This document shows positions 4,990-59,684 of a DNA stretch of 64,000 nt, piece after piece; position 1 is the first letter of the stretch; every line of letters begins with the position of its first letter. Both the position numbers and the translations under genes were made by a program. The DNA lies in assembly GCA_049287045.1 (NCBI GenBank), contig JBAQFC010000001.1, positions 3,309 to 67,308 on the forward strand. The letters run 5' to 3'. The notes under the pieces were generated by a model. It was not told where the DNA came from, did not search any database, and was given only the letters and a program-made list of their open reading frames with translations. Source of the DNA: Minisyncoccia bacterium. GTDB lineage: Bacteria > Patescibacteriota > Minisyncoccia > Phycocordibacterales > UBA9973.

Positions 4990-4991
4990 TT

Positions 4992-5600: not shown

Positions 5601-5601
5601 T

Positions 5602-6018
5602 ATGTCATCTACAATAAAAAACATAATAATACTTGTAGTTGTGGCGATAGTCCTTGTTTTAGTTTACATTTTTTTCTTAAAACCTGCCCCAGAACAAGCA
5701 CCTTTAACTACATCATCTGGCGCACCAGTTACTGCCACTGTAACCAGTGACCCTATAACAGGAAGCGAATTCCTTGCAGTTCTTTTGAGTGTAAAAAGCT
5801 TAAGACTTGATGATGCTATTTTTTCTGATCCAGCTTATATTTCTTTGCATGATTCTAGTATTGAACTTATTACTGATACCACAGAGGGGAGACCAAATCC
5901 TTTTGCCCCGATTGGTTCAGATGTTTCTACTGTACCTATTAATACTCTAGCTCCTACTTCTACAACAACCACTATCGTCCCTACAACTACAACCACCACT
6001 ACAAAAATAACACCTTAA
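5602..6018 (+). CDS. small membrane-anchored protein with Thr-rich C-terminal tail (PilP-position protein)
   Basis: N-terminal TM; low-complexity TTTTIVPTTTTTTTK tail; sits between pilO and pilB. Confidence 0.3.
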   Translation: MSSTIKNIIILVVVAIVLVLVYIFFLKPAPEQAPLTTSSGAPVTATVTSDPITGSEFLAVLLSVKSLRLDDAIFSDPAYISLHDSSIELITDTTEGRPNPFAPIGSDVSTVPINTLAPTSTTTTIVPTTTTTTTKITP

Positions 6019-6025
6019 TTATATT

Positions 6026-7777: not shown

Positions 7778-7851
7778 GTTTCTTTAATGCTATATCATAA
7801 AAAGTGTTTTTAGAATATAATTAATATATTATCATTTATTAAATTTTACAC

Positions 7852-8913: not shown

Positions 8914-8932
8914 TAATTAATATTGTAATATT

Positions 8933-10141: not shown

Positions 10142-10145
10142 ACTG

Positions 10146-10175
10146 TTGATATCTTTTAAACGTTTGTGATATAAT
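10146..10175 (+). promoter_or_regulatory. sigma70-type promoter upstream of the major pilin (TTGATA, 18-bp spacer, TGTGATATAAT)
   Basis: -35/-10 hexamers read directly. Confidence 0.45.
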
Positions 10176-10235
10176 TAGAAAATTATAAGTCGAATTAACA
10201 AATTCATGGCTAGGCTATGAATAAAAATTAAAAAA

Positions 10236-10733
10236 ATGAAAAAAATGAATTTAAAAAGAGGTTTCACATTGATTGAACTTTTGGTTGTGGTCGCTATTAT
10301 TGGTATTCTTTCATCTGTTGTTTTGGCCTCATTGAACTCTGCTAGAATAAAGGGTTCTGATGCAGCTGTTAAAGCAAACTTAGCAAACCTACGTGGACAA
10401 GCTGCTATTTGTTACGATGGTGGTTGTTCGACTGTTACAGCTGGTAATTATGGTGCTGGTGTTACTTGTACCTTTACTGCTGCCGGTGCTATGACTGGCT
10501 GTGCATCAGATCTTTTTGCTGATGAGACATTTAGAAATGGTATGAAAGCTGCTGCGTCTGCTGGAGGTGCTACTGGTGCTAATCCAGTTACTGGCTATAC
10601 TAATGCTGCGGGAGATGCATGGGCTGTTCATTCTCCAGTTAAAAACACAACTGATTTAACTTTTTGTGTGGATAGTGCTGGTGCCGCAAAGAAAAATTCA
10701 ACTGCGCAAGCTCTTACAGGACTTTGTTCTTAA
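10236..10733 (+). CDS. pilA: major type IV pilin (prepilin; cleavage G|FTLIELLVV, Glu at +5)
   Basis: class III signal peptide MKKMNLKRG|FTLIE; Cys-containing C-terminal region. Confidence 0.85.
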   Translation: MKKMNLKRGFTLIELLVVVAIIGILSSVVLASLNSARIKGSDAAVKANLANLRGQAAICYDGGCSTVTAGNYGAGVTCTFTAAGAMTGCASDLFADETFRNGMKAAASAGGATGANPVTGYTNAAGDAWAVHSPVKNTTDLTFCVDSAGAAKKNSTAQALTGLCS

Positions 10734-10758
10734 TCTGAATAAAGTTTTTAACAAAAAA

Positions 10759-10786
10759 CACTCAAACAAAAGTTTGAGTGTTTTTT
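10759..10786 (+). terminator. rho-independent terminator after the pilin gene
   Basis: cactcaaac-aaaa-gtttgagtg plus T6. Confidence 0.6.
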
Positions 10787-10840
10787 GTTTATCTGTATAT
10801 GATATAATAAAAGAAGCTTTATAAATTTTAATTTTTAAAA

Positions 10841-11632
10841 ATGACATTAATACTCACAATTATTTTCTTTGCTTTTGGTCTTATTATTGGAAGTTTCCTA
10901 AACGTAGTAATTTTAAGATACAACACTCGAAGAACTTTAGGCGGTCGTTCTTCTTGTATGGTTTGTCAAAAAGAACTTGCTTGGCACCATCTCATACCTG
11001 TATTTAGTTTTTTGGCACTGAAGGGGAGATGTGCTCATTGTCAGACTAAAATTTCAACTCAATATCCCTTGGTTGAATTTGTGACCGGATTAATATTTGC
11101 CGGTTTATTTTTAAAGTTTCAAGATATTTTTTATGTAAACATATTGGTATTTTCTATTTCTGTCGCTTATTACGCTATGATGTTTTCTCTGTTGGTTGTG
11201 ATTGCGGCTTACGATTTGAGACATAAAATAATTCCAGATATGCTTAGTTTGTTTTTTGGTATATTAGCATTTATTGGAATGTTCTTTTTTTCTAATTACG
11301 GTTTCAATATACATATCCCTTCTGCTTTAGAGTTTTTATCAGGAGTGTTTATTGCCTTACCTTTTGGTTTGCTTTGGCTTTTGTCCAAAGGTACTTGGAT
11401 GGGGCTTGGAGATGCTAAACTTGCGTTGGGATTGGGTTGGCTTTTAGGTCTCTCTCGTGTATTGAGTGGCGTTGTTCTTGCTTTTTGGTCTGGGGCGATA
11501 GTCGGAGTCTTCTTAATTATTTTTTCTAAAAAACATGGAATGAAAAGTGAAATTCCATTTGCTCCATTTTTAGTTTTAGGTATAATCTTAGCTTTTCTTT
11601 TTGAATTACACCTTTTTCCTATTGGTTTTTAA
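10841..11632 (+). CDS. pilD: prepilin peptidase PilD (A24 family)
   Basis: CMVC...CAHC zinc motif plus polytopic membrane domain with conserved Asp region. Confidence 0.85.
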   Translation: MTLILTIIFFAFGLIIGSFLNVVILRYNTRRTLGGRSSCMVCQKELAWHHLIPVFSFLALKGRCAHCQTKISTQYPLVEFVTGLIFAGLFLKFQDIFYVNILVFSISVAYYAMMFSLLVVIAAYDLRHKIIPDMLSLFFGILAFIGMFFFSNYGFNIHIPSALEFLSGVFIALPFGLLWLLSKGTWMGLGDAKLALGLGWLLGLSRVLSGVVLAFWSGAIVGVFLIIFSKKHGMKSEIPFAPFLVLGIILAFLFELHLFPIGF

Positions 11633-11645
11633 AATTTAAATAAAT

Positions 11646-12287
11646 ATGTTTTTGAAAATAAAAAACAAAAAACAGTGGTTTAAACACAAAAAAGGAGGAA
11701 TGACTTATGTTGAACTCATTGTCGTTTTGAGTATTTTTTCTGTTATGTCTACGATTATTCTTACAAACTATGGCGCTTTTCAGGCAAAGGTAGATATTAA
11801 AAACCTGGCGAATGATATTGCTTTAAAAATAGTTGAAGCACAAAAATCCGCTATGTCAGGAAAATATCAAGTTAATGCTCCTGTTGGTTGGAAACCAGCT
11901 TACGGTCTATATTTCAACGCAAGTACTTCTTATACCGCAAGTGGTTTGAAAACTTTTTATTATTTTACTGACCTTGATCAAAATAATGATTATCAAACCG
12001 CCTCAATTTGTCCGAATGGTGGAGAATGTATAGAAAAAATAGACATAACTAAAGGCAATTTTATTAGTAGAATATTTCCTTGCACTGGTGATCCTTGTGT
12101 CCCTGGTGAGTTTTCTGGTAGTACCTTGGCTATTACTTTTAAGAGGCCAGATTCCAGTGCTGTTTTTTATTCAGGTGGTGGGCTTGTTTCCGGTTACGAT
12201 TATATGCAAATGACTGTTTCTTCACCTCATTCTACTGCTACTGCTAAAATAAAAATATATCCTTCAGGTAGAATTCAAATAAATTAA
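11646..12287 (+). CDS. minor pilin / pseudopilin (prepilin-type N-terminus KKGG|MTYVELIV)
   Basis: class III leader, Glu+5, hydrophobic helix. Confidence 0.7.
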   Translation: MFLKIKNKKQWFKHKKGGMTYVELIVVLSIFSVMSTIILTNYGAFQAKVDIKNLANDIALKIVEAQKSAMSGKYQVNAPVGWKPAYGLYFNASTSYTASGLKTFYYFTDLDQNNDYQTASICPNGGECIEKIDITKGNFISRIFPCTGDPCVPGEFSGSTLAITFKRPDSSAVFYSGGGLVSGYDYMQMTVSSPHSTATAKIKIYPSGRIQIN

Positions 12288-12931
12288 TGAAAAAAAATTT
12301 TAAACAAAACAATAAATTTAAGGAGGCCTGCACCGTGAAGCTTCAGCGAAGTGGTGGATTTACAATAGTAGAAACAATGATTTCTGTCTCTCTTTTTTTG
12401 GTTATTGTTATGGCGGGGATGGGTGCATTGTTAAATGCCAATTTGCTTCACAGTAAATCACAAGATATGCGTTCATTGATGGATAGTTTGAGTTTTGTAA
12501 TGGATGATATCTCTAAAAATATAAGAACAGGTTACAATTATCATTGTATTGATGATTTTAATTTTACTACAATAACTGCCGCTAAAAGTTGTCTAATCAA
12601 TGGTAATGGTGGAGGAATCGCTTTTACTTCTTCTAGTGGTCCGACATTTGTGTACTACATATCTTCTGATTTTAAAATTTTTAGGTCAACCCAAGCACCT
12701 TTTGATGTTCTTCCTCCGTCTGTTGGAAATACCTATGTTCAATTAACTCCTAATGAAATAAAAATTGATTCAATTTCAAGCTTTTCAGTGCTTGGTGCAG
12801 AATCTTCAATAGCAGGAAATTTACAACAACCCCTTGTGACTATTAAATTAGTTGGGGCAATAACATCTAAAGGTGTTGTTTCACCTTTTTCAATACAGAC
12901 GTCAGTTTCTCAAAGATTAGTAGATTTATAG
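12287..12931 (+). CDS. minor pilin / pseudopilin (SGG|FTIVETMISV)
   Basis: class III leader, Glu+5. Confidence 0.7.
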   Translation: MKKNFKQNNKFKEACTVKLQRSGGFTIVETMISVSLFLVIVMAGMGALLNANLLHSKSQDMRSLMDSLSFVMDDISKNIRTGYNYHCIDDFNFTTITAAKSCLINGNGGGIAFTSSSGPTFVYYISSDFKIFRSTQAPFDVLPPSVGNTYVQLTPNEIKIDSISSFSVLGAESSIAGNLQQPLVTIKLVGAITSKGVVSPFSIQTSVSQRLVDL

Positions 12932-12937
12932 AATAAA

Positions 12938-13519
12938 ATGAAAAAATTTTTTAAACAAAAGAATAATATAAGTGGTGGTTTTACATTAATAGAAACTCTT
13001 GTTGCTATTTCTATTTTTACTATGTCTATTGTTTCTGTGATGGTTGTTATTTCGGGTGGTATTTCAGACACTAATTATGCTAAAAAGAAAATAGTTGCAG
13101 GATATCTAGCTCAGGAAGGTATTGAGGAAATGCGTAATATGCGAGACACGTCTGTTCTTTATTTTGGAGCAACTGGTCAGATCGGATGGGATAAATTTGT
13201 TACCAATATTGCCTCGTGTCTTACTGTAAATGGATGTTATTTTGATAATAGTGAGATACTTTATTCTAATGACAATATGCCAATAATGCATGTCTCACTC
13301 CCTCCTTGTAACCAAGTTTGTCCATCAATTATGTTTGATGAGACTAGTGGAAAATATGAATATAACCCAGCGGGTGTGGATTCTGGTTTTAATCGTAAAA
13401 TTACTGCAGTTCACTATACTCCAGATGAAATAAAAATTACTTCAACTGTTTCTTGGGTGCAAGGTTCCGGTGTCGCTTCAGTAACTTTTTCAGAAAATTT
13501 ATTTAATTGGACACAATAA
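12938..13519 (+). CDS. minor pilin / pseudopilin (SGG|FTLIETLVAI)
   Basis: class III leader, Glu+5. Confidence 0.7.
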   Translation: MKKFFKQKNNISGGFTLIETLVAISIFTMSIVSVMVVISGGISDTNYAKKKIVAGYLAQEGIEEMRNMRDTSVLYFGATGQIGWDKFVTNIASCLTVNGCYFDNSEILYSNDNMPIMHVSLPPCNQVCPSIMFDETSGKYEYNPAGVDSGFNRKITAVHYTPDEIKITSTVSWVQGSGVASVTFSENLFNWTQ

Positions 13520-14040
13520 TGATTACACAAAAAATAAAAAAAAATATATCTTCTATTGTGAATTTTGAGAAAAATAAGGGTTTTGTTTTGCTTTTTGCTG
13601 TGATGCTTTCGAGTATTGTTTTGGCTATATCATTGGGAGTTGCCAATATTGCATTAAAAGAAATAAATTTTACCACTTCAACCAAAGATACCAACAATGC
13701 TTTCTATGCGGCTGATATTGGGGCTGAATGCGCACTTTTAGGTGATAAGGTAGGTACAAATAAATTTACTCCTGATAATTACTTCGTAACTTGCTTGGGT
13801 GCTGATATTTATTATGTAGTTGGTGATTGGAATACCGGTCCTTGGGATTTTCCAATTTCAGGATTAGGTAGTTCTGGTATAGCTTGTTCTAAAGTTACTG
13901 TAACAAAAACAGATATGGGTGGTGGTTCTACTTTAACTACTATAACTTCAAAAGGTTACAACAATGGTGGCGGTGTGCCAGATTTGTGTACACCAGATTC
14001 AAAAAGTGTGGAACGTGAACTTCAAGTAACTTATTACTAA
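13507..14040 (+). CDS. PilX-like minor pilin (KG|FVLLFAV, no Glu+5)
   Basis: prepilin-like leader plus hydrophobic helix; Cys pair near C-terminus. Confidence 0.5.
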   Translation: MDTIMITQKIKKNISSIVNFEKNKGFVLLFAVMLSSIVLAISLGVANIALKEINFTTSTKDTNNAFYAADIGAECALLGDKVGTNKFTPDNYFVTCLGADIYYVVGDWNTGPWDFPISGLGSSGIACSKVTVTKTDMGGGSTLTTITSKGYNNGGGVPDLCTPDSKSVERELQVTYY

Positions 14041-14041
14041 T

Positions 14042-16111
14042 TTGGTCATGGATAAGAAAGAAATAGAAAAGAGAATAAAAAAATTACGAAGTGAGATTGC
14101 ACGTCTACGCAACGCATACCATATAGAAAATGCACCAAATGTGACCGATGATGTTTACGATTCTTTAACTCGAGAGCTCAAATCCATTCTTTTAAAATAT
14201 CCAGAATTTGCTGATTTAAATTCTTTAGAAAATAGAGTTGCAGGGCGTCCGCTGGATAAATTTGTTAAAGTTGAGCATAGCATACGTATGCTTTCTTTAA
14301 ATGATGTTTTTAGTTATGAAGAACTTGATGGTTGGGAAAAGAGAATAAAAAAACTTCTACCACCTCAAAGGTCGGACCTTATGTATTTTTGCGAAGTAAA
14401 ATTTGATGGTTTGGCTGTGTCTTTGGTTTACGAAAAAGGTATCCTTGTCAAAGGTGCGACTCGTGGGGACGGTCTTGTTGGTGAAGATATAACCCAAAAT
14501 TTAAAAATGATAAAGAGTATACCTATAACTTTGCATTCTCCTTACCCTGAATATATTGAAGTAAGAGGGGAAGCAATCATGTCAAAAAAGACACTTGTTG
14601 ATTTAAATAAAAAAAATGAAAAAGAAGGCAAACCATTATTTGCAAATACTCGTAATGCTGCAGCCGGTTCACTTCGACAACTTGACCCTAAACTAGCCGC
14701 TGAAAGAAATCTAGATTTTTTTGCGTATGATATTGCAGAGGTGAAGTTTGTGGAGCCAAAAAGGTCGGACCTTAAGAATTTAGAAAGGTCCGATCTTGGG
14801 AATCTATTGGCTCCACAAACTCATTCCGAAAAACATTCTCTTTTAAAAAATCTGGGTTTTAAAGTAGACTCCAATGATGCTCTTTGTAAAAATTTAAAAG
14901 AAGTTGAGACTTTTATTAAAAAATTTGAAAAAATTCGTCCCAATTTTTCTTTTGGTACAGATGGGGTGGTTATCTCTGTTGATGATTTAAAGTTACAGGA
15001 AGTTTTAGGAGTTGTTGGTAAAGCTCCACGTTATATGGCTGCTTTTAAATATCCTGCGGTTCGAGCAACAACAACTGTAAAAGATATAAAAATAAATGTT
15101 GGCCGTACTGGGGCACTGACACCACTTGCTATTTTTGAACCAACCCTGGTTGCTGGTTCGACCGTTTCCAAGGCAACCCTGCACAATATGGATCAAATAG
15201 AGCGTCTTGATTTGCGTATAGGAGATACTGTAGTGATAGAAAAAGCTGGAGATGTTATTCCGAAGGTTGTAGAAGTTCTTCATAATATGCGTACAGGCAA
15301 GGAAAAGAAATTCAAAATGCTAGAAAAATGTCCAGCCTGTGGAGGTGCTGTAGAAAAAAGGGCTGGTGGTACCGGCGAGACAGTAGCATATTATTGCACG
15401 AATCCAGAATGTCCGGCAAAAAATGAAAGATATCTAGATCATTTTGTTACTGCTTTTGAGATTTATGAATTAGGTCCTAAAATATTGAGAAGATTTAAAG
15501 ATGAAGGATTAATTACTGACGCGGGAGATATTTTTTCTCTTACAAAAGAAGACATTGCGCCCCTAGAAAGATTTGGTGAAAAGAGCGCAGAGAATATTGT
15601 AAAAGAAATTGAATTAAAAAAGAAAGTTTCATTTTCTCGCTTTTTGTGGGCACTTGGAATACTACACGTAGGTACTGAAACTGCACGAGATTTGGCTTCA
15701 AACTTTGGCACCTTAGATAAATTAATGAAAGCCAATATAGAAGAAATAAATGAAATAGAAAATATTGGTCCAGCTGTTTCAGAAAGTGTTTATGATTATT
15801 TTCATAACAAAAACAATTTGGCTTTTGTTGAAAAATTACAAAAAAATGGAGTAGTGATAAAAAAAGAAGAAAAGAAAAAAGGTGGTAAATTTACTGGAAT
15901 GACTTTTGTAATTACCGGTACTCTCGCAGATATGTCACGTGAGATAGCGAAAGAAAAAATAATTTCTTTAGGGGGCAAAGTTTCAGGTTCAGTTTCCAAG
16001 AATACTTCTTATGTTTTGGCTGGAACTGATCCTGGGTCAAAGTTTAAAAATGCTGAAAAGCTAGGTGTTAAAATAATAGGGGAAGAAGAGTTTCTGGAGT
16101 TGTTAAAATAA
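14042..16111 (+). CDS. ligA: NAD-dependent DNA ligase LigA
   Basis: KxDG adenylation motif (EVKFDGLAVSL); Zn-finger CPACGG...C; HhH and BRCT C-terminus; contains two copies of the AAGGTCGGACCTT palindrome. Confidence 0.9.
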   Translation: MVMDKKEIEKRIKKLRSEIARLRNAYHIENAPNVTDDVYDSLTRELKSILLKYPEFADLNSLENRVAGRPLDKFVKVEHSIRMLSLNDVFSYEELDGWEKRIKKLLPPQRSDLMYFCEVKFDGLAVSLVYEKGILVKGATRGDGLVGEDITQNLKMIKSIPITLHSPYPEYIEVRGEAIMSKKTLVDLNKKNEKEGKPLFANTRNAAAGSLRQLDPKLAAERNLDFFAYDIAEVKFVEPKRSDLKNLERSDLGNLLAPQTHSEKHSLLKNLGFKVDSNDALCKNLKEVETFIKKFEKIRPNFSFGTDGVVISVDDLKLQEVLGVVGKAPRYMAAFKYPAVRATTTVKDIKINVGRTGALTPLAIFEPTLVAGSTVSKATLHNMDQIERLDLRIGDTVVIEKAGDVIPKVVEVLHNMRTGKEKKFKMLEKCPACGGAVEKRAGGTGETVAYYCTNPECPAKNERYLDHFVTAFEIYELGPKILRRFKDEGLITDAGDIFSLTKEDIAPLERFGEKSAENIVKEIELKKKVSFSRFLWALGILHVGTETARDLASNFGTLDKLMKANIEEINEIENIGPAVSESVYDYFHNKNNLAFVEKLQKNGVVIKKEEKKKGGKFTGMTFVITGTLADMSREIAKEKIISLGGKVSGSVSKNTSYVLAGTDPGSKFKNAEKLGVKIIGEEEFLELLK

Positions 16112-16840: not shown

Positions 16841-16876
16841 AAATACCCCTGACTTTGGTCAGGGGTATTTTTATTT
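16841..16876. terminator. bidirectional rho-independent terminator (A-run, acccctgac-tttg-gtcaggggt, T-run)
   Basis: perfect 9-bp stem flanked by A and T runs between convergent genes. Confidence 0.6.
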
Positions 16877-18393
16877 TACAGACCTGCTATTTTTTTAATT
16901 TCTTCGAGGTATGTTCGGTTGTTTGAAAGGCGGGGAACTTTATTCTGTCCACCGAGTTTTCCTCTTTTTTTCATCCAGTTATAAAATGTATCTTTAGATA
17001 CTGAGTTAATAATTAGTGGAGCGAGGGCGATATCTTTATATCTTTTTGCATCATAGTCAGAATTAATTGCGCGTAGATTTGAATCAAGAAGTTCACTAAA
17101 TTCCTTCAGTGAACTAGGAGGATTTTCAAATTCAATAACCCATTCATGTCCACCCCGGTTTGAATTGTTCATAAAAATTGGAGCGACTGTATATTCAGAA
17201 ATAGTAGTACCAGTTTGATCACAGGTTTTTTTAATTGCTAAGTCTGTGTTGTGTACCATTACTTCTTCTCCGAAAACGTTAATAAAATGTTTTGTTCGGC
17301 CAGTTATTTTAATACGATGAGGCAAAAGTGTTGTAAAGGAAACCGTATCACCAATTATATAACGCCAGAGACCACTATTAGTAGAAATAACTAATACATA
17401 ATTTTTATCAATTTCTACATCAGACATCGTGTATACTTTAGGATTTTCTAGTTCAAATTCACTCGTCGGAATAAATTCATAAAAAACACCACAATCTGGC
17501 ATTAATAGCATTTCTCCTTCACGTAATGGATCGTCTTGTACTGCAAAAAATCCTTCTGAAGAATTGTATGCTTCCATATAATTCATTTGGGGTGATGGAA
17601 AGAGTTCTTGAAAACTTTTTTTATAAGGCAAAAAGGAAACTGCGCCATGAAAAAAAACTTCTAAATTGGGCCACACTTCAAAAATATTTTTTGCTTTTGT
17701 TTTTTCTAAAACTTTTTTTACCAGTATGGCTGTCCATGTCGGTACACCTGCAATACTTGTAACATTTTGATTTATCGCTTCATTAGCCAGTTTTTCAATT
17801 TTTTCTTCATAATCTTCAAGTAATGCTGTTTTTAAGCTTGGAGTTCTGAGATATTTTCCAAGTGGTGGCATATTTTTCATCATAACAGCTGAGATATCAC
17901 CACAAAAAATATCTGGGTTTTGTTTTATTTTTGTAAAACTTCCGCCAACACAAAGACTTTTTCCTTTGAAGATTTTGGTATTTGGATTATTTTTAATATA
18001 TAGACATACTTCATTTGTGCCGGCTTTGGTGTGGCAGTCTTTTATTGATTCCTTAGAAACAGGGATAAATTTGCTTCGAGCATTTGTTGTGCCGGAAGAT
18101 TTAGAAAACCAAGTTGTTAATCCGGGCCAAAGAACATTTTTTTCTCCCGTCATCATTCTAGATATGAAAGGTTGGAGATCTTCATATAAGTTAATCGGTA
18201 CATTCTTTTGAAAACGCTCCACCGTTTTGATAGAACTATATTTATGTTTTTTGCCCCATTCAGTATTCTTTGATCTTCTTAAAAGACTAAATAACACTTT
18301 TTCCTGTGCTTTTTTAGGGTCCTTTTCTATTCTTTCTATTTCAGCAAGTCTGTATTTTATAGGTAATTTTAATAGAGTGTGGATAAAGTTCAT
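16876..18393 (-). CDS. GH3-family acyl-acid amido synthetase (adenylate-forming enzyme)
   Basis: GH3 motifs SSGTTNARSKFIP (I), YNSSEG (II), YRYIIGDTV (III); start set at Met30 of the track ORF so the upstream palindrome is non-coding (the ORF is open to 18480). Confidence 0.7.
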   Translation of the reverse strand: MNFIHTLLKLPIKYRLAEIERIEKDPKKAQEKVLFSLLRRSKNTEWGKKHKYSSIKTVERFQKNVPINLYEDLQPFISRMMTGEKNVLWPGLTTWFSKSSGTTNARSKFIPVSKESIKDCHTKAGTNEVCLYIKNNPNTKIFKGKSLCVGGSFTKIKQNPDIFCGDISAVMMKNMPPLGKYLRTPSLKTALLEDYEEKIEKLANEAINQNVTSIAGVPTWTAILVKKVLEKTKAKNIFEVWPNLEVFFHGAVSFLPYKKSFQELFPSPQMNYMEAYNSSEGFFAVQDDPLREGEMLLMPDCGVFYEFIPTSEFELENPKVYTMSDVEIDKNYVLVISTNSGLWRYIIGDTVSFTTLLPHRIKITGRTKHFINVFGEEVMVHNTDLAIKKTCDQTGTTISEYTVAPIFMNNSNRGGHEWVIEFENPPSSLKEFSELLDSNLRAINSDYDAKRYKDIALAPLIINSVSKDTFYNWMKKRGKLGGQNKVPRLSNNRTYLEEIKKIAGL

Positions 18394-18404
18394 ATATTTA
18401 TTTT

Positions 18405-18449
18405 CCCCGATACCTGGTTTAGGGTAATCCCCTAAACCAGGTATCGGGG
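18405..18449. promoter_or_regulatory. perfect 20-bp inverted repeat with 5-nt loop (ccccgatacctggtttaggg-taatc-ccctaaaccaggtatcgggg) in the divergent GH3/truB intergenic region
   Basis: read directly; 20/20 complementarity. Confidence 0.5.
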
Positions 18450-18508
18450 AAACGGTCTTTTGCCATATATAGTATACCAAATTGTGCTACAATAATTTCA
18501 TATTAAAT

Positions 18509-19339
18509 ATGATTAAAGTTACCCAATCTAAAAAAATTAAGAAAAGTATTATCCTAGACAAAAAAGAAGGTGAGACTCCTCTACAATCGTTAGAAAAATT
18601 TCGTAACAAAAACCCAGAATACAAAAATGTATCGATGACTTACGCAGGAAGATTGGACCCAATGGCTTCAGGTTTGCTTTTGATATTGGCAGGAGAGGAA
18701 GTAAAGAAAAAAGAAAAGTATTTAGCACTACCAAAAGAGTATGAATTTGAAATTCTCTTTGGTTTTGCGACGGATACGTATGATATTTTGGGGAAAGTTT
18801 TGTCTTGCGTTAGGCAAGACCTAACGCAAGAGTCTGAAAGTAAAAAATTAAAAAAACTTATCCAACAAAACTTAAAATTTTTTACTGGGAAGTTTATTCA
18901 GAAATACCCACCGTATTCTTCAAAGCCAGTGAATGGGAAGCCGATGTTTGCGCATTCTCGAGCTGGCACTAAAGTAATAATTCCAGAAAGAGAAGTTTCT
19001 GTATCTAAGTTGGAGTTATTAAAAGTAAAAAAAATAAATAAAATAAAACTTTTAGAAAATATAGAAAAAAGAATTAACAAAGTTGATGGTCCTGCCCGCC
19101 CTCACGAAGGTTCGGGAGCAGGCGGGGATTTTCGTCAGAAAGAAATCATAAAAATTTGGCAGAAAGAATTAACGAGAAACAAAAAAAGTATTGAAAAGTT
19201 CTTGGTGGTAAAATTTAAAATTAAGTGTGGTAGTGGAACCTATGTGCGGGGGATAGCGAACTCATTGGGTGATAAGGTAGGTATACCAGCATTGGCTTTC
19301 TCTATAAAAAGGACAAAAATAGGAAAATGGACTAAATAG
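18509..19339 (+). CDS. truB: tRNA pseudouridine(55) synthase TruB-like
   Basis: ILDKKEGETP...GRLDPMASGLLLIL catalytic Asp motif; GTYVRGIA motif; start at second in-frame ATG. Confidence 0.7.
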   Translation: MIKVTQSKKIKKSIILDKKEGETPLQSLEKFRNKNPEYKNVSMTYAGRLDPMASGLLLILAGEEVKKKEKYLALPKEYEFEILFGFATDTYDILGKVLSCVRQDLTQESESKKLKKLIQQNLKFFTGKFIQKYPPYSSKPVNGKPMFAHSRAGTKVIIPEREVSVSKLELLKVKKINKIKLLENIEKRINKVDGPARPHEGSGAGGDFRQKEIIKIWQKELTRNKKSIEKFLVVKFKIKCGSGTYVRGIANSLGDKVGIPALAFSIKRTKIGKWTK

Positions 19340-28505: not shown

Positions 28506-28517
28506 TAAAATATAAAA

Positions 28518-28551
28518 CAAAAAGCCCGCGACCAAGGTCGCGGGCTTTTTG
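28518..28551. terminator. bidirectional terminator (agcccgcgacc-aa-ggtcgcgggct plus T5) between gyrB and thrS
   Basis: 11-bp GC-rich stem flanked by A and T runs. Confidence 0.7.
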
Positions 28552-28563
28552 TTTATATTTGTT

Positions 28564-41878: not shown

Positions 41879-41892
41879 ATATTTAAATTAAA

Positions 41893-41927
41893 ATAAAGCC
41901 CCCGACCTTAGGTCGGGGGCTTTATTG
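41893..41927 (+). terminator. rho-independent terminator (agcccccgacc-tta-ggtcgggggct plus T-run)
   Basis: read directly. Confidence 0.7.
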
Positions 41928-42072: not shown

Positions 42073-42396
42073 ATGAAAAATATAATATTTTTTATTGCTT
42101 TCTTTTTATTATTTTTTATTTCTTGTTCTCCTAAAAAGGAAAATAATCAAGAATATGGTTTTCGTCGACCGTATATTATCATTAGATATGATTCTAATGG
42201 AATTATTACTGATATTTGGAAATTAGAAGATACTCGTAATATTCAAAAGACTCAGCTTAATAATCGTATTAATTTTGTAGATTATAAAAATAATACAATT
42301 TCCTTAAGCGGAAAAAGTATAAAGATAATAGAGATAAAAAATAAAAAAGAAAAAAATTACCTATTTAAATTATATGTTGAGTGTCATGAAAATTAA
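42073..42396 (+). CDS. small putative lipoprotein (lipobox FISC)
   Basis: signal peptide with ISC lipobox. Confidence 0.4.
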   Translation: MKNIIFFIAFFLLFFISCSPKKENNQEYGFRRPYIIIRYDSNGIITDIWKLEDTRNIQKTQLNNRINFVDYKNNTISLSGKSIKIIEIKNKKEKNYLFKLYVECHEN

Positions 42397-43172: not shown

Positions 43173-43182
43173 AAGTAATAAC

Positions 43183-43446
43183 ATGGTGACTGTAACTAAA
43201 AAAATTGATACAGAATGGTTTGAGTTAGTTCTCTCTGGAAAGAAGAAATTTGAACTTCGTCTTGCTGATTTTGATATAAAAGAAGGGGATATTTTAAGAC
43301 TTGAAGAATATACAGAAGAAAAGAAACCAACAGGAAGATTTATCGAAAAAGTTGTAACTTATGTTCGCAAACCTGATTTGTCTGAATGGATAAAACAACA
43401 GCCAGAATTATTAGAAAAATCTTTTTTTGTTATTCAGTTTGATTAA
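43183..43446 (+). CDS. ASCH/DUF3850-like small PUA-fold protein
   Basis: EWFELVLSGKKKFELRL...GDILRLEEY pattern. Confidence 0.45.
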   Translation: MVTVTKKIDTEWFELVLSGKKKFELRLADFDIKEGDILRLEEYTEEKKPTGRFIEKVVTYVRKPDLSEWIKQQPELLEKSFFVIQFD

Positions 43447-43447
43447 T

Positions 43448-43475
43448 TGTGTATAAATGTCGAAGGTCGGACCTT
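43448..43475. repeat. 28-bp direct repeat copy A (TGTGTATAAATGTCGAAGGTCGGACCTT); core is the 13-bp perfect palindrome AAGGTCGGACCTT
   Basis: 27/28 identity with 44388-44415; contains a TGnTATAAAT extended -10-like element. Confidence 0.8.
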
Positions 43476-43503
43476 TAATATTTTACGTGATACAATATAT
43501 TTT

Positions 43504-43818
43504 ATGTCATACAAAATTGTTGTTTATGTGCCCCTAGAAAACGCTGATACTGTTCGAGATGCAATAGCTAATGCTGGGGGAGGAAAATTAGGCAAATACA
43601 CACATTGTACTTTTTCTGTTAGAGGAACAGGTCGTTTTAAGCCTGAAGATGGTGCCAATCCACATATTGGAAAAGTTGGTGAATTAGAATTAGTTGATGA
43701 AGAAAGAATTGAAGTAACTTGCCAAAATAATGTTATGAGTAATGTTGTTGCAGCTATCAAGAAAGTACATCCATACGAAGAAGTTGCAATGGATATTTAT
43801 GAGTTAACTGATTTGTAA
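43504..43818 (+). CDS. Nif3-family C-terminal (YqfO-C-like, PII-like fold) domain protein, standalone
   Basis: KIVVYVPLENADTVRDAIANAGGGKLGKYTHCTFSVRGTGRFKPEDGANPHIGK...VHPYEEVAMDIYEL matches the YqfO C-terminal domain. Confidence 0.55.
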   Translation: MSYKIVVYVPLENADTVRDAIANAGGGKLGKYTHCTFSVRGTGRFKPEDGANPHIGKVGELELVDEERIEVTCQNNVMSNVVAAIKKVHPYEEVAMDIYELTDL

Positions 43819-43867
43819 TTTAATTTCATTTAAAAACATGTAGGTCCCACTATAAGAAATAAATAAT

Positions 43868-44341
43868 ATGAGAAACACAAAAGAAGCATTAATATGGATC
43901 ACTGATATTCTAAAGAAATTGGAAGTACCTTTTGAAATTGACGGGGGTATGGCAGCTAATCTTTATGGGGCTGAAAGAGAACTTGCTGATATAGATATCA
44001 ATGTGCCATTAGAGCATTTTCATAAAATTACTCCTTTAGTAAAAGAATATATCATTTACGGACCTTTAAAATACAAAGATGATAATTGGGATGACCTTAT
44101 GATGACATTAAAATACCTTGAGCAAGATATTGATATTTGTGCTTTGGGTGATATGAAATATTTTGATTCAAAAAATATGAAATGGGTAGATATGCCGTCG
44201 GATCTTTCTACTGTTAAAATGATGAAATATGAGGATATTGAAGTTCCTGTGATTGATAGACAAACTTTAATTGATTACAAAAAAGTGTTAGATAGGGAAG
44301 TTGATAGAATAGATGTTGAATTTATGTTAAAAAATAAATAA
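43868..44341 (+). CDS. Lnu(A)/ANT-like small nucleotidyltransferase (pol-beta NTase fold)
   Basis: FEIDGGMAANLYGAERELADIDINV (hG[GS]...D[IV]D motif); size (157 aa) and pattern resemble lincosamide/aminoglycoside nucleotidyltransferases. Confidence 0.55.
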   Translation: MRNTKEALIWITDILKKLEVPFEIDGGMAANLYGAERELADIDINVPLEHFHKITPLVKEYIIYGPLKYKDDNWDDLMMTLKYLEQDIDICALGDMKYFDSKNMKWVDMPSDLSTVKMMKYEDIEVPVIDRQTLIDYKKVLDREVDRIDVEFMLKNK

Positions 44342-44345
44342 TCCC

Positions 44346-44380
44346 AATACATAGGAAACTCCTGTGTATTCTATGTATTG
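44346..44380. other. 10-bp-stem hairpin (caatacatag - 15-nt loop - ctatgtattg) just after the NTase stop
   Basis: read directly. Confidence 0.45.
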
Positions 44381-44387
44381 GAATAAC

Positions 44388-44415
44388 TGTGAATAAATGT
44401 CGAAGGTCGGACCTT
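44388..44415. repeat. 28-bp direct repeat copy B (TGTGAATAAATGTCGAAGGTCGGACCTT)
   Basis: 27/28 identity with copy A. Confidence 0.8.
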
Positions 44416-45635
44416 CGATAGAAGGCTTATGTTATAATAAAAGTGTGAAAACAAAAATAATTTCAAAAAGTAAATACAAAATTACATACGGAGGATGGTA
44501 TCAGCGAACAACACTCCATCTTAGTGAAATATATATGTTGTTTATGCATGGCACCTCCAATTTGAATTTATCAAAAGAAGAACTCAAAAAGTTTCAAGAA
44601 GGGCTTCAGCTTGCCAGTATTTCCCGCGAATCCGGTTATTTTGAATATATCAAAGCAGTAACAACATCAGGCATAGAAGTCCGATATTATGAAGACGGTC
44701 TTTATACTTTAGATATTTATTCTGATGATATTTCGACTGCACAAGATATGCTTGAAAAATATTTTCAAGAAAAACTTAGTCCGGCGATCTCTTTTATTTT
44801 TTCTCTTGGCGCACCGACTCCAAAAATATTAGCAAATATAAAGACAGACCACCCAGTCGCAGTGAGTATTTTAAACGATAAAAATGATAATTTTATTTTA
44901 GATGAATCTTTGTTCGGTGAAGTTTATACTAAAATTTCAAGTGGAGGTATTACAGTATATAAAACTCCGAAGTATATTTTTATTTCTGCCCCAAGAGAAG
45001 CAGGGAAATACATGAATGATGTTATTGAGATGCAAATTTTCTTCCGAGAATTCAAGGACCAGCTTGAAAAATATTTGCATATTCACAGGACTATTTGGGA
45101 AGAGATTTCTAATATCAAGGAAGCAAAGATAATTAAAGGCAAGGATGTTGAAGAAATAAGAGGTAGACTCGATGGTTATCAAAAAACAATCAGTCTCATC
45201 AGTAATCGAATTAATCAGATGAATTCTTATATCAATACTCGTTCTTCTATTGCAAAAAATCTTGAAATTGAAAAGGAACTGGTGGCTCTTTTTGAATATA
45301 AATTTGAAACACTAACTGATACATTGTCTTATATCAAAGAAATATGGAAAATGACCGGTGATTATCTCGCGTCAGCTATCGGTAATCTTGTGGAAATAAA
45401 AAATCAAAGTACGAGTAATAATTTAAAATCTCTTCAGACTATTACAAGTATTGGAGTGATTTCGGGAGTAATAGGCTATTTATCGGCAAGCAAACTACCA
45501 AGCATTAGTAAAGAAGGGGCCGTATATTTTATTATTCTTTTTTGTTTGACTTGGCTTATGAATTTTATAATCTCAAAGAGATATAAGAATAAGAAATATA
45601 GTTTAAAATTTGGTGACCGCGCATCCAACATATAA
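44397..45635 (+). CDS. hypothetical protein with C-terminal TM helix; true start uncertain (the track start lies inside repeat B; Met residues at about residue 47 and about 50 are alternatives)
   Basis: ORF; predicted coiled-coil middle; C-terminal hydrophobic segment. Confidence 0.35.
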   Translation: MSKVGPSIEGLCYNKSVKTKIISKSKYKITYGGWYQRTTLHLSEIYMLFMHGTSNLNLSKEELKKFQEGLQLASISRESGYFEYIKAVTTSGIEVRYYEDGLYTLDIYSDDISTAQDMLEKYFQEKLSPAISFIFSLGAPTPKILANIKTDHPVAVSILNDKNDNFILDESLFGEVYTKISSGGITVYKTPKYIFISAPREAGKYMNDVIEMQIFFREFKDQLEKYLHIHRTIWEEISNIKEAKIIKGKDVEEIRGRLDGYQKTISLISNRINQMNSYINTRSSIAKNLEIEKELVALFEYKFETLTDTLSYIKEIWKMTGDYLASAIGNLVEIKNQSTSNNLKSLQTITSIGVISGVIGYLSASKLPSISKEGAVYFIILFCLTWLMNFIISKRYKNKKYSLKFGDRASNI

Positions 45636-45651
45636 TATAAATTTAATTTTT

Positions 45652-47948: not shown

Positions 47949-48719
47949 ATGAAAGAAACAAGAATTATTATGGGCATGCCTGTAATAATAGAAATCCCTG
48001 ATGATTCTGTAGTTAAAGAAATATTTAATCTTATTTTTGATTATTTTTCTTATATTGATGAAAAATTTTCTCTTTATAAAGAAACAAGTGAAATAACAAA
48101 AATAAATAAAGGAGAAATTAAAGAAGATGAGTACAGTGAAGATATGAAGGAGGTTTTAAAGTTGTCTGAAGAAACAAAAAAAGAAACAGGTGGTTTTTTT
48201 GATATTATGAATAATGGATTATGTGATCCGTCTGGAATAGTAAAGGGTTGGGCTATTCATAATGCATCAGAAATTCTTCGCAGAAACAAAATTAAAAATT
48301 TTTATGTTGAAGCTGGAGGTGATATTGAGGTAGAAGGTAAAAATAATGATGGTAAACTTTGGGCTATAGGCATCGCTAATCCTTTTGATTTAAAACAAGT
48401 AGTAAAAGTTGTATACTTAGAAAATAAGGGGATTGCAACAAGTGGTACATATATACGCGGACAGCATATATATAACCCGAAAAAGTTTGCGGAAGTCGTT
48501 GCGGAAGTCGGACTTCCGCAGGACATAGTGAGTTTGACTGTTATTGGTCCGAATGCTTATGAAGCTGATCGTTTTGCTACAGCTGCCTTTGCGATGGGGA
48601 GAGAAGGAATTATTTTTATTGAGAATCTTCCCGGTTTTGAAGGATATATGATTGACAAAGACGGAATAGCGATAATGACAAACGGTTTTGAAAAATATTT
48701 GATACAAAAAAATGCTTAA
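47949..48719 (+). CDS. apbE: FAD:protein FMN transferase ApbE (no signal peptide)
   Basis: MGMPVIIEI, SEITKIN, GGFFDIMNNG, KGWAIHNASEIL, GGDIEVEG, WAIGIANP, ATSGTYIRGQHIYNP, EADRFATAAF motifs. Confidence 0.85.
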   Translation: MKETRIIMGMPVIIEIPDDSVVKEIFNLIFDYFSYIDEKFSLYKETSEITKINKGEIKEDEYSEDMKEVLKLSEETKKETGGFFDIMNNGLCDPSGIVKGWAIHNASEILRRNKIKNFYVEAGGDIEVEGKNNDGKLWAIGIANPFDLKQVVKVVYLENKGIATSGTYIRGQHIYNPKKFAEVVAEVGLPQDIVSLTVIGPNAYEADRFATAAFAMGREGIIFIENLPGFEGYMIDKDGIAIMTNGFEKYLIQKNA

Positions 48720-56538: not shown

Positions 56539-57987
56539 TTGTTTTTAATTATTAATAAATCGTCATCTTTTAAAAATATGAAAATATTAAACAAGGTTTC
56601 TATTGCGTCCGTCTTGGTTTTTGCTTTCGTTTTAGGTTTTACTGGATCATCTACTGCAAATGCAGCTGGTCCTTCGGTAGTCAATCTTGGATCAGCAGGT
56701 GATTTTGTCCTTCTTGGAAAAACAGGAATCTCAACTACTGGGACAACTGCAATCACAGGAGATATTGGAGTCAGCCCTGCCGCAGCGACTTATATCACTG
56801 GATTTGGATTAATAATGGACACCTCAAATACATTCTCAACATCTTCTCTTGTTACAGGTAAAGTTTATGCAGCTGATTATACTGCTCCAACTCCAACTAA
56901 GATGACTACAGCTATCAGTAATATGGAAACTGCTTACACTGATGCTGCAGGAAGAACAAATCCAACTGCAACTGAATTGGGCTCCGGAAATATTGGTGGA
57001 TTAACAATTGCACCTGGACTCTACAAATGGGGTACTTCTGTGATAGTGCCGACTGATGTTACTTTATCAGGAAGCACAAACGATGTTTGGATTTTCCAGA
57101 TAGCACAAGATCTTTCTTTAAGTTCTGGTGTTCATATCAATTTGGCTGGTGGTGCAAAAGCTGAAAATATTTTCTGGCAGGTGGCTGGTCAAACAACCTT
57201 AGGAACAACTTCTGTTTTTAACGGAAATATTTTAGACCAAACAGCTGTTGTATTTAATACTGGCGCAACATTAAATGGTAGAGCTCTTGCACAAACTGCT
57301 GTTACATTGGATTCAAATTCTGTAATTATTCCCGCAGTTGTTTCTGTAACTCCAACCCCAGAAGTAACACCAACACCTGTAGTTACACCAACTACTACAG
57401 TAAATACGACCGTAACACCTACATCAACAACTATAACTCCAGTCACAACTGTTACAGCTGCCACAGGTTGTCTACAAGGAAATGCTTTTAATACAGCCAC
57501 TGGTGCTTCTTGTACTCCTCCTATTTCTGCAAGTGAAGGTTGTCTGCAAGGTAATATGTTTAACACAGTTACAGGTACTGCTTGTACTTCCGTTGTTGTC
57601 TCTGTTGACACAGGTTGTTTACAAGGAAATAAATTTAGTATAACTACAGGAAATACTTGTACTTCTTTCGTTCCTAATGTTTCTACTAATACTACTACTT
57701 CAACTGTATCAACTACCACTACTCCAGCCAATTTTGGCCAACTAATAAAATCAATTGCTGTTAATCTTAATATGGGTAGCAAAGGAGATTTAGTAAGAAG
57801 TCTTCAAGAGTTTCTAATTTCACAAGACAAAGGTCCTAAAGCAAAAGCTCTAGATGCCCACGGTACAACTTTAAACTTTGGATCTTTAACTAAAGCAGCT
57901 TTGGCTGAGTGGCAAGAAGCTGTTGGTATTTCTCCAGCGCTAGGAAACTTTGGACCAATAACTCGAACTTTTATAAGTGCAAATTAA
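56539..57987 (+). CDS. secreted DUF3494 (ice-binding-like beta-solenoid) protein with three tandem 20-aa Cys repeats (GCLQGNxFNTxTGxxCT) and a C-terminal peptidoglycan-binding (PGBD-like) domain
   Basis: signal peptide; NLGSAGDFVLLGKTGISTTGTTAITGDIGVSPAAATYITGF; three 60-bp DNA repeats at 57467-57650; C-terminal LVRSLQEFL...AALAEWQ. Confidence 0.55.
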   Translation: MFLIINKSSSFKNMKILNKVSIASVLVFAFVLGFTGSSTANAAGPSVVNLGSAGDFVLLGKTGISTTGTTAITGDIGVSPAAATYITGFGLIMDTSNTFSTSSLVTGKVYAADYTAPTPTKMTTAISNMETAYTDAAGRTNPTATELGSGNIGGLTIAPGLYKWGTSVIVPTDVTLSGSTNDVWIFQIAQDLSLSSGVHINLAGGAKAENIFWQVAGQTTLGTTSVFNGNILDQTAVVFNTGATLNGRALAQTAVTLDSNSVIIPAVVSVTPTPEVTPTPVVTPTTTVNTTVTPTSTTITPVTTVTAATGCLQGNAFNTATGASCTPPISASEGCLQGNMFNTVTGTACTSVVVSVDTGCLQGNKFSITTGNTCTSFVPNVSTNTTTSTVSTTTTPANFGQLIKSIAVNLNMGSKGDLVRSLQEFLISQDKGPKAKALDAHGTTLNFGSLTKAALAEWQEAVGISPALGNFGPITRTFISAN

Positions 57988-58013: not shown

Positions 58014-59684
58014 TTGACATTACGCGACATGATTTTGCAAAATCAAAAATATATGAAAAAGTTTAATAAAATTTCAATACTCGTGTTAGTTATTGTGTTT
58101 GCTCTTGGAACGGCTGGACTAATAAAAGCCAGAGCTGCTTCAACAGTAAGTCTCGGCACAGCAGATAACTTTGCAGTTTTAGCTGGATCAGGAATTACAG
58201 ATACAACACCTTCTGTTGTTAGTGGAGATGTTGGTTTGAGTCCAACTACTGGTGCAGCTATTGGTATAACCGTTGGTGAAGTAACAGGTACGGTATATGC
58301 TGTTGATGTGGCTGGGCCAGTTGGTTCAGTAAATAATCCAGGTTTATTAACTTTAGCTAAAGATGCTTTAACAACTGCTTACGGTGTAGCTGCTGGCCAA
58401 GCACAAACATCTGCAATTGTTGCTGATCTTGGTGGACAAACATTAACACCAGGTGTTTATAATTCTGGTTCTTCTATTGGACTTACCGGTACGGTCACTC
58501 TTGATGGTGGTGGTGATGCAAATGCAGTTTTTATTTTTCAAGCTGGTTCCACTCTTACTACCGCATCAGCCAGTCATGTTAATCTAATTAATAGCGCTCA
58601 AGCTTGTAATGTTTTTTGGCAAGTTGGCAGTTCGGCTACTCTTGGAACAACTTCTGATTTCAAAGGAAATATTCTTGCTTTTTCTTCTATTACAGATAAC
58701 GGAGGTTCGACTGTAGACGGAAGACTCTTAGCAAGAAATGCTGCAGTTACATTAAACAATACTCATGTTACTAAATCAACATGTTCAACTCCTGTTCCTA
58801 CACCTACACCAACGCCTACTCCAACTCCAGTAGCACCTTTAATTAGTATTGAGAAAGTTCCATCTTTATTGTCCTTGTCTGTTGGAGGTGGATTAATTTC
58901 ATTTGATTATACAGTTTTAAATGTTGGAACAGTTGCTATGAGCAATGTCACAGTTACTGACAATAAATGTTCTCCAGTAGCTTTTATTTCAGGTGACACC
59001 AACAGTGATTCAAAACTTGATTTAACTGAAACTTGGAAATATAATTGTACCTCAACAGTTACACAAACAACCACAAATACAGCCACTGCGACTGGTCAAG
59101 CAAATGGTTTTACTGCAACTGATACTGCAGATGCAACTGTTGTTGTTGGTGCAGCACTTCCATCACCGTTGATCCATCTTATTAAAAAGCCAAGTGTAGA
59201 TACTCTTCCATCTTCTGGTGGAGCAGTTACCTATACATACACTGTGACCAACCCTGGTACAGTTGCTTTGAGTAATGTAAGTGTTGTTGATGATAAATGT
59301 AGTTCAGTTTCTAGTCACTCGGGTGATACAAATAACAATAATTTGCTTGATATTTCAGAAACATGGACTTATACATGTCAGTCCAATCTTACACAAACAA
59401 CTACAAATAAAGGTACAGCTGAGGGAAGTGGTAATGGTTTGACTGCTATTGATTATTCTCTTGCTACAGTTACTGTAGCTGGTTCAGTCGTAGCTCCTGT
59501 AGTAGTCTCTACTCCTGTTGTAAAAGCTTCTACCACAACAACTTCTGTAGTAACAACTCCTAAGTTGCCAAATACAGGATTTGCTCCCGAAGAAAAAAGT
59601 AATGTCTGGAATATTATTATCCCTGCTGGAATTTTTATTACTCTATTTTCATTCTATTTAGCTAAAAAGAAACAGATAATCTAA
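58014..59684 (+). CDS. LPNTG-anchored surface protein: DUF3494 (ice-binding-like) domain, Pro/Thr linker, two DUF11-like repeat domains
   Basis: signal peptide; SLGTADNFAVLAGSGITDTTPSVVSGDVGLSP; PTPTPTPTPTP linker; two ~100-aa repeats with conserved Cys pairs; C-terminal LPNTG, hydrophobic helix, KKKQ. Confidence 0.65.
   Translation: MTLRDMILQNQKYMKKFNKISILVLVIVFALGTAGLIKARAASTVSLGTADNFAVLAGSGITDTTPSVVSGDVGLSPTTGAAIGITVGEVTGTVYAVDVAGPVGSVNNPGLLTLAKDALTTAYGVAAGQAQTSAIVADLGGQTLTPGVYNSGSSIGLTGTVTLDGGGDANAVFIFQAGSTLTTASASHVNLINSAQACNVFWQVGSSATLGTTSDFKGNILAFSSITDNGGSTVDGRLLARNAAVTLNNTHVTKSTCSTPVPTPTPTPTPTPVAPLISIEKVPSLLSLSVGGGLISFDYTVLNVGTVAMSNVTVTDNKCSPVAFISGDTNSDSKLDLTETWKYNCTSTVTQTTTNTATATGQANGFTATDTADATVVVGAALPSPLIHLIKKPSVDTLPSSGGAVTYTYTVTNPGTVALSNVSVVDDKCSSVSSHSGDTNNNNLLDISETWTYTCQSNLTQTTTNKGTAEGSGNGLTAIDYSLATVTVAGSVVAPVVVSTPVVKASTTTTSVVTTPKLPNTGFAPEEKSNVWNIIIPAGIFITLFSFYLAKKKQII

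Follow-up and report, generated by a model that had tools for sequence, protein, structure and literature searches.

Rickettsia palindromic elements (RPE), ~100–150 bp in length, are palindromes of a bacterium with a reduced genome; they are found in intergenic DNA and also in housekeeping genes, inserted in frame where the protein has a permissive loop. The GC clusters or double-hairpin elements of fungal mitochondria are GC-rich palindromes of AT-rich genomes, which lie in spacers, occasionally in frame in genes, and can be nested. Repetitive extragenic palindromic (REP) sequences and bacterial interspersed mosaic elements (BIME), together with the REP-associated tyrosine transposases (RAYT, TnpA-REP), represent a third setting, in which imperfect GC-rich palindromes of 20–40 bp are dispersed at gene ends and in spacers and form hairpins with covarying arms. 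REP elements also carry a conserved GTAG or CGTC terminal tag (PMC3733652). Here we analyzed two direct repeats, copies A and B, in a 64-kb stretch of DNA (the window) taken from the 146.6-kb source contig of a low-GC (~33%) metagenome-assembled genome (MAG) of Minisyncoccia (Patescibacteria, or candidate phyla radiation, CPR). An earlier note, made from the sequence, had suggested that the two copies could be paired promoter-operator sites or the ends of a small acquired cassette. We favour, with moderate confidence, the reading that A and B are paralogues, two copies of one dispersed hairpin mini-element that sit in a gene-flux hotspot and mark a recombination or duplication junction; probably they are neither a dedicated operator pair nor the ends of a mobile resistance cassette. 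The two copies and the related sequences in the window are located as follows.

43438–43480, plus strand: repeat copy A, a 43-nt unit with the 28-mer at 43448–43475 and the palindromic core AAGGTCGGACCTT at 43463–43475.
44378–44420, plus strand: repeat copy B, with the 28-mer at 44388–44415 and the 23-bp near-perfect palindrome TGTCGAAGGTCGGACCTTCGATA at 44398–44420.
14368–14380, plus strand: core AAGGTCGGACCTT in variable site 1 of ligA, in frame (RSDL), with two copies at the same place in the sister genome GCA_036169735.1.
14745–14821, plus strand: nested in-frame palindrome in variable site 2 of ligA, with outer arms TTTGTGGAGCCAA/TTGGCTCCACAAA and inner arms AAGGTCGGACCTT, 11 nt, AAGGTCCGATCTT.
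48487–48520, plus strand: related palindrome TGCGGAAGTC-G-GACTTCCGCA, in frame in an ApbE-like gene, with the same GTCGGAC centre and covarying arms.

As the earlier note had claimed, the 28-mer TGTG[T/A]ATAAATGTCGAAGGTCGGACCTT forms a unique pair on the plus strand: no other match was found in the window even with up to three mismatches allowed, and none was expected (0 in 100 shuffled windows). The two 28-mers agree at 27 of 28 bases and contain an identical 23-nt core (43453–43475 = 44393–44415), and the ungapped likeness of A and B (repeat family D14) stretches over 43 nt (43438–43480 versus 44378–44420, 86%). The left end of copy A overlaps the stop codon of a DUF3850/ASCH gene, while copy B is wholly intergenic once the start of the downstream gene is corrected to GTG 44445. 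A left flank of ~20 nt is common to A and B and was found in no other member of the family. Junction A (L048) and junction B (L001) were both recovered at 100% identity in two independent Logan assemblies, indicating that the arrangement is real and not an assembly artefact. The 13-bp palindrome that had been described in each repeat is present as a core, but it is not unique to the pair, and in copy B the palindrome really extends over 23 bp (TGTCGAAGGTC-G-GACCTTCGAtA), more than the 13-bp core.

Further copies are dispersed in the window, and they lie inside a gene. The 13-mer core AAGGTCGGACCTT has two further exact copies, at 14368 and 14761, and a variant at 14785; each of these lies within ligA, where it is read in frame as RSDL. 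When up to two mismatches were allowed, five sites were found in 64 kb (10 strand matches versus 0.8 expected). In an alignment of 20 LigA homologues, both sites stood out as hypervariable hotspots of in-frame insertion across Paceibacteria, and the 120 listed homologues measured 661–758 aa. At site 2, where the inner arms of the nested hairpin are two copies of the motif, the calculated DNA fold reached −26.3 kcal/mol (z = −8.2). In the sister genome, site 1 (L043 10321–10357) holds two motif copies 11 nt apart, which pair with each other, and site 2 (L043 10716–10763) holds an unrelated perfect palindrome with 23-bp arms. Regarding the palindrome in the ApbE-like gene, its arm differences from A and B are mirrored on both sides; it is common to the sister genome (L046 12834–12854) and absent in the other close relative, L029 (GCA_023267435.1), and the copy in the window carries a 12-nt tandem duplication of its left arm that adds 4 aa.

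Mirrored change was also seen in palindromes of other sequence. GC-rich perfect palindromes occupy seven distinct sites in the window (17 arm/loop variants versus 1.0 in shuffles), and in three cases a palindrome of the window and its orthologue in a relative have diverged at several positions, with each still perfect. Between the divergent GH3-like gene and truB, the window has a perfect palindrome with 23-bp arms (18402–18452), whose orthologue in the sister genome (L043 13440–13489) has 24-bp arms with ~7 differences per arm, all mirrored. Inside the truB open reading frame (ORF), the perfect palindrome TCTTGCGTTAGG-caaga-CCTAACGCAAGA (18803–18831) corresponds to a longer one in the sister genome, with 16-bp arms and a mirrored T/C change (L043 13830–13866). 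The palindrome at 41892–41926 and its diverged orthologue in L029 (7158–7194) are likewise both perfect. Some side observations belong here. The terminator-like perfect palindromes at 41892–41926 and 28515–28554 have arms of 17–19 bp, and the former contains GACCT-T-AGGTC, in which the half-sites of the A/B core have changed places, perhaps by coincidence. A second dispersed mini-palindrome, TTGCGGAAGcaagGCT(T)CCGCAA, was found at unrelated loci of L029 (8863–8885) and L038 (475–497), and its arms resemble those of the ApbE element. In the window, the gene of the GH3 family (acyl-acid amido synthetase-like; 16876–18480, minus strand) is unbroken; the sister genome has it in small fragments (L043 12812–13414).

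In order to follow the motif beyond the window, an 18-mer was scanned in 185,579 species-representative genomes as well as in metagenome and viral contigs. Most matches were due to chance or lay in coding sequence of high-GC genomes, and there were none in the viral contigs. The 18-mer occurs three times in a distant Minisyncoccia MAG, D2.bin.5 (41–49% GC): in frame in a prmC-like methyltransferase gene, where both arms are duplicated, in a tandem array in a spacer, and in another spacer, the element being found in both orientations relative to transcription. In a groundwater contig from the metagenome scan, a tsaE-like gene carries a 21-nt stretch of copy B, in frame and without a mismatch. 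The 19-mer ATGTCGAAGGTCGGACCTT is common to five sites, and beyond it nothing is shared except between A and B. In ~93 kb of DNA of other relatives, including the syntenic region of L029, the motif is absent.

The spacers that hold A and B belong to a slot whose gene content differs among relatives. The annotated gene order (NCBI) is TrmD, the 87-aa DUF3850/ASCH protein, the 104-aa WAV23_00245, the 157-aa WAV23_00250, the 396-aa WAV23_00255 and a major facilitator superfamily (MFS) transporter, with the following features in the variable part.

43173–45650, plus strand: block of ~2.5 kb absent from the sister genome, where trmD is joined directly to the MFS gene.
43183–43446, plus strand: 87-aa DUF3850/ASCH protein, within the variable block and missing from both relatives.
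43504–43818, plus strand: 104-aa stand-alone NIF3 insertion-domain protein with a P-II-like fold (WAV23_00245).
43868–44341, plus strand: 157-aa pol-beta-type nucleotidyltransferase (NTase) of the TM1012/LnuA/MenT1/ANT(2'') group (WAV23_00250).

L029, at ~84% amino-acid identity, is syntenic with the window from rpsP past apbE. Its slot, from trmD to the 396-aa gene, is occupied by genes for two small membrane proteins, an Asp/Glu racemase and a SET-domain protein; it shares with the window only a 25-nt hairpin and the promoter of the 396-aa gene, and no copy of the palindrome is present in 21 kb of L029. Nucleotide homology to L029 ends at 43172 and restarts at 44418, the right edge of copy B. 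In the sister genome, whose LigA is 93% identical, the MFS gene starts 4 nt after the trmD stop codon, with breakpoints at 43172 and 45651. The 940-bp segment between the repeats is thus absent from both relatives, as the earlier note had proposed to check, but the breakpoints are not at both repeats, the break to L029 matching the right edge of copy B only. The claim that the two genes were acquired gains support, since both nearest relatives lack them and homologues of the NTase lie in unrelated neighbourhoods. The trmD–MFS slot is a general gene-flux hotspot. A MAFFT alignment hinted that copy B might derive from what is left of a SET-domain gene, at its 3' end, but this was too weak to claim. 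The slot upstream of trmD is also variable, with a gene for a 107-aa lipoprotein-like product of just 20.7% GC in the window (42073–42396), and a 69-aa gene plus a HigB/ParE-like toxin gene in the sister genome (L046 8819–9287).

In the reading that we favour, the element is a short GC-rich hairpin-forming palindrome with a consensus of about (A)ATGTCGAAGGTC-G-GACCTTCGACAT(T) around the core AAGGTCGGACCTT. It is scattered at low copy number through some Minisyncoccia genomes, where it lies in spacers and, in frame, in housekeeping genes at permissive loops. A and B occupy adjacent spacers between trmD and the MFS gene, 12–14 nt upstream of predicted leaderless-type promoters. The left flank of ~20 nt private to A and B points to one junction having been copied from the other, rather than to two independent insertions; flank and element together may have been copied, by recombination or by a template switch at the element, when the NIF3-domain/NTase segment came to lie there or was rearranged. 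The element itself may have spread as a hairpin, through single-strand or template-switch copying, and would have no dedicated regulatory role at this locus. Since A and B are identical over 23 bp, the 940-bp segment should be deletable by slippage or recombination. Several points weigh against this reading. The copy number is low (within 64 kb, two full copies and three of the core), of the 185,579 species representatives just one other genome has the 18-mer in a CPR context, and copy number and distribution rest on a 64-kb window of the source genome. No mobilising enzyme was found in the window, nor was an empty site with a target duplication found. In addition, A and B are nearly equidistant from a −10 element, which would have come about by chance unless duplication or selection acted on the promoter context.

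A wider claim can be made only tentatively: some Patescibacteria possibly harbour a new class of GC-rich perfect-palindrome elements of ~20–30 bp, which are copied between unrelated loci and genomes, enter ligA, truB, apbE, prmC and tsaE in frame as well as the regions upstream of promoters, undergo nesting and arm duplication, and evolve in concert, so that the arms stay perfectly complementary as the sequence diverges.

The alternative that survives best, although we consider it unlikely, is a paired operator, in which a dimeric transcription factor would bind the palindrome and repress or activate two leaderless promoters by occupying their −35 regions. The promoters concerned are the following.

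43488–43506, plus strand: extended −10 TGATACAAT, 7 nt and ATG 43504, a predicted leaderless-type promoter of the NIF3-domain gene, 12 nt past palindrome A.
44430–44447, plus strand: extended −10 TGTTATAAT, 6 nt and GTG 44445, marking the predicted promoter of the conserved 396-aa gene and its true start.

The palindrome ends 12 nt (A) or 14 nt (B) before the extended −10, and its centre precedes the −10 hexamer by 22 nt at 43491 and by 24 nt at 44433. A perfect dyad therefore overlaps the expected −35 position, and it is common to two adjacent transcription units. However, the spacing between palindrome and −10 differs by 2 bp between A and B, the palindrome is missing from three further promoters of this type in the window, and no regulator gene was seen nearby. 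Three more copies lie in frame in ligA, and others are in the prmC-like and tsaE-like genes elsewhere. Furthermore, the promoter of the 396-aa gene in L029 keeps its −10 and its start, an ATG aligned with GTG 44445 directly after TGTTATAAT-N6, without any palindrome.

The extended −10 that the earlier note had seen in the repeats themselves, TGTGWATAAAT, does not hold up: in copy A its TG abuts TATAAA, in copy B the hexamer is AATAAA, and it serves no ORF. Neither internal ATG (43457 and 44397) has a usable −10 at 6–7 nt before it, and better ones are those at 43488 and 44430. The ATG within copy A opens just a 26-codon ORF. The 412-aa ORF that starts within copy B (MSKVGP...) was rejected, because both the NCBI annotation and the orthologues begin 16 codons later; the real start is GTG 44445, giving 396 aa as in the NCBI record, with orthologues of 385–401 aa. 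The repeats can therefore yield spurious N-terminal extensions, as in one assembly whose gene caller gave the 412-aa product in place of the true 396 aa. The arrangement TGnTAnAAT, 6–7 nt, start codon was found at five gene starts (19377, 30396, 43488, 44430 and 61716), leaving no spacer for a Shine-Dalgarno sequence, so that genes at the head of transcription units look leaderless; this pattern suggests leaderless mRNAs for such genes. A reading as promoters of extracytoplasmic function (ECF) sigma factors was discarded, as the spacing does not fit.

Somewhat less probable still is that A and B are recombination sites, similar to attL/attR or dif, between which a site-specific recombinase whose gene lies elsewhere would move a 940-bp cassette. 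A and B do recall attL/attR in being direct repeats that are identical over a 23-bp core and have partly similar flanks, the enclosed genes are accessory and missing from relatives, and the right edge of copy B coincides with the homology breakpoint to L029. Distant homologues of the NTase (34% identity) are, moreover, true cassettes in an integron-type array of Vibrio. On the other hand, no integrase or Xer-type gene was found in the 64 kb, and reading of the sequence revealed neither attC R''/R' boxes nor the 11-6-11 layout of dif. The near-symmetric core offers little directionality, and the presence of the same sequence within essential genes is hard to square with an att site. The repeat is not confined to the segment, and the boundaries in the relatives do not fall at the repeat pair, which speaks against the ends of an acquired cassette as the earlier note had proposed. 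The closer NTase homologues (94%, 85% and 77% identity) lie in three unrelated neighbourhoods, with no repeat near them and no NIF3-domain gene beside them, which makes a two-gene cassette or a toxin–antitoxin pair unlikely; judged by these homologues, the NTase is a floating accessory gene that here does not travel with the repeats. One of the distant homologues, from Vibrio parahaemolyticus (L050; NZ_CP010886.1 2420–10875; 34% identity), is annotated as 'MazG-related protein' and sits in an array with 13 attC-like repeats. No recombinase, transposase or helix-turn-helix regulator was seen in the window, either by eye or in a Pfam scan of 20 unassigned ORFs, and no similarity to phage or plasmid DNA was detected.

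An RNA-level role is improbable to a slightly greater degree. Here, the stem-loops would act, much like REP sequences, as processing sites, stabilisers or weak terminators between the cistrons of a transcript reading through from trmD. The hairpin that the earlier note had placed between the NTase stop codon and copy B was found, with an alternative stem.

44344–44381, plus strand: hairpin 3' of the NTase gene, formed by AATACATAGG-AAACT-CCTGTGTATT at 44346–44370 or by an 11-bp stem, CCAATACATAG/CTATGTATTGG, at 44344–44381.

Its 25-nt core AATACATAGGAAACTCCTRTGTATT is the same at 24 of 25 positions in L029 despite different upstream genes. As DNA, copy B folds into an 8–9 bp stem with a CGG loop, and copy B together with the upstream hairpin gave z = −5.8 versus shuffles; a T-rich run, TTTAATATTTT, follows copy A, and the arm changes across the family are mirrored, all of which would suit an RNA element. 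Copy A, however, folds weakly (z = −0.7 versus shuffles), no U-tract follows copy B, and classical terminators are present elsewhere in the window (42417, 28515 and 41892). The coding copies cannot share such a role, and in D2.bin.5 the element stands in both orientations relative to transcription. The sole report of a terminator at copy B was a minus-strand pseudo-terminator, which was rejected because there are no minus-strand genes there, and Rfam and tRNA scans returned nothing at the locus.

The genes enclosed by the repeats are as the earlier note had described them, a NIF3-like protein and a 157-aa NTase. The 104-aa protein aligns to the insertion domain of NIF3 (2gx8, residues 163–261 of 397, E 5e-29), with no Pfam NIF3 match, and the full-length metal-binding core domains of NIF3 (DUF34) are not present. 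The NTase can be placed in the ANT(2'')/LnuA-type small NTase superfamily by its pol-beta fold, its G[GS]...DxD motif and its gathering score for PF10706. The suggested classification by hidden Markov models (HMMs) bore out the ANT(2'') relationship marginally (Pfam PF10706, 22.7 bits at a cut-off of 21), but the scores for NCBIfam Lnu(A) (21.7 bits, cut-off 350) and Lnu(E) (20.5 bits, cut-off 300) were far too low. The NTase aligns full-length to LnuA (4fo1), keeping the DGG...DIDI motif, and its AlphaFold2 model (pLDDT 96.7) gave TM-scores of 0.80 with TM1012, up to 0.70 with MenT1, 0.66 with LnuA and 0.62 with ANT(2'')-Ia. Judged by these scores, it is not a recognisable Lnu or resistance allele, and the antibiotic-modifying role that the earlier note had considered possible is not supported. 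It is very improbable that the NTase and the NIF3-domain protein form a functional module, either a minimal MenT/MNT-like toxin–antitoxin element or a resistance cassette with the repeats as its borders, because, although the model resembles TM1012, LnuA, the MenT1 toxin and ANT(2'')-Ia and the catalytic motif is kept, the partner is not conserved (each of three close homologues has a different neighbour), PADLOC found nothing, the Lnu HMM scores are far under their cut-offs, and the two genes lie 49 nt apart and were not seen together elsewhere. The interpretation of the earlier note is, overall, partly supported, and its cassette or operator reading mostly not.

A reading of the motif as a DNA uptake sequence was also set aside, as it is ~10 times sparser than in known uptake systems and missing from close relatives. 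The window does contain a minus-strand ComFC-like gene and, after it, a complete type IV pilus cluster that comes right before ligA (2532–14040), with pilM/N/O-like genes, pilC, genes for two secretion ATPases, pilins and a prepilin peptidase. In two large surface-protein-like ORFs there are tandem repeats of 72–75 nt and a repeat spaced by 330 nt (57450–57666 and 59016–59419).

A resistance cassette or an operator would be ordinary, and the evidence favours neither. In an uncultured minimal bacterium, essential genes tolerate perfect palindromes that are shared across genomes and carry mirrored substitutions. If the wider class is real, either a new hairpin-specific mobilising activity or a lineage-specific process of template switching or hairpin repair would be expected, and A and B would be one local product of it, marking where accessory genes were swapped. 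The pattern bears on how CPR bacteria gain and lose accessory genes at fixed hotspots, on a possible want of hairpin-cleaving repair and on the existence of a small mobile hairpin element in the phylum. Our search for reports of palindromic, leaderless or uptake sequences in CPR yielded nothing relevant, and no account of such elements in Patescibacteria was found.

Comparison with known systems places the element as follows. MenT/MNT toxin–antitoxin systems differ in that here no antitoxin partner is conserved next to the NTase. The dif/pdif sites and integrative mobile elements exploiting Xer (IMEX) similarly place 28-bp direct repeats around small accessory or resistance modules; however, when the repeat is divided as TGTGTATAAAT / GTCGAA / GGTCGGACCTT, the outer arms are not mutual inverted repeats and no 11-6-11 XerC/XerD layout appears, and, unlike at dif, there is no GC-skew switch here and the same sequence lies within coding genes. 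Integron cassettes are likewise small accessory genes bounded by repeated imperfect palindromes, and distant homologues of the NTase are Vibrio cassettes. Their attC sites, however, are ~57–141 bp in length with R''/L''-L'/R' boxes (RYYYAAC ... GTTRRRY), which are absent from the 28–43 bp repeat, no intI or attI was found, and the flanked genes have their own extended −10 promoters rather than being promoterless. With REP, the element shares a short hairpin-forming palindrome (23 bp with an 8–9 bp stem in copy B), yet it also lies in frame in ligA, prmC-like and tsaE-like genes and is present in low copy number, not in hundreds; neither GTAG nor CGTC occurs in ATGTCGAAGGTCGGACCTTCGACAT or its complement, and no gene for a RAYT/Y1 HUH transposase was seen in the window. 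In behaviour the element comes closest to REP, RPE and the mitochondrial GC clusters, but it lacks features that define each of them: it is not strictly extragenic, has no GTAG/CGTC tag and is much shorter than RPE. The mitochondrial GC clusters belong to an organellar, eukaryotic setting, with no sequence kinship and with target duplications that were not seen here; the likeness consists in GC-rich palindromes in an AT-rich genome (33% GC here), located in spacers and genes and nested. RPE belong to another phylum and differ in sequence and in size, the units here being 13–29 bp, or up to ~77 bp when nested, but the element resembles them in its in-frame insertion at variable loops, as seen in the ligA alignment and in ApbE compared with L029, while A and B themselves are intergenic.

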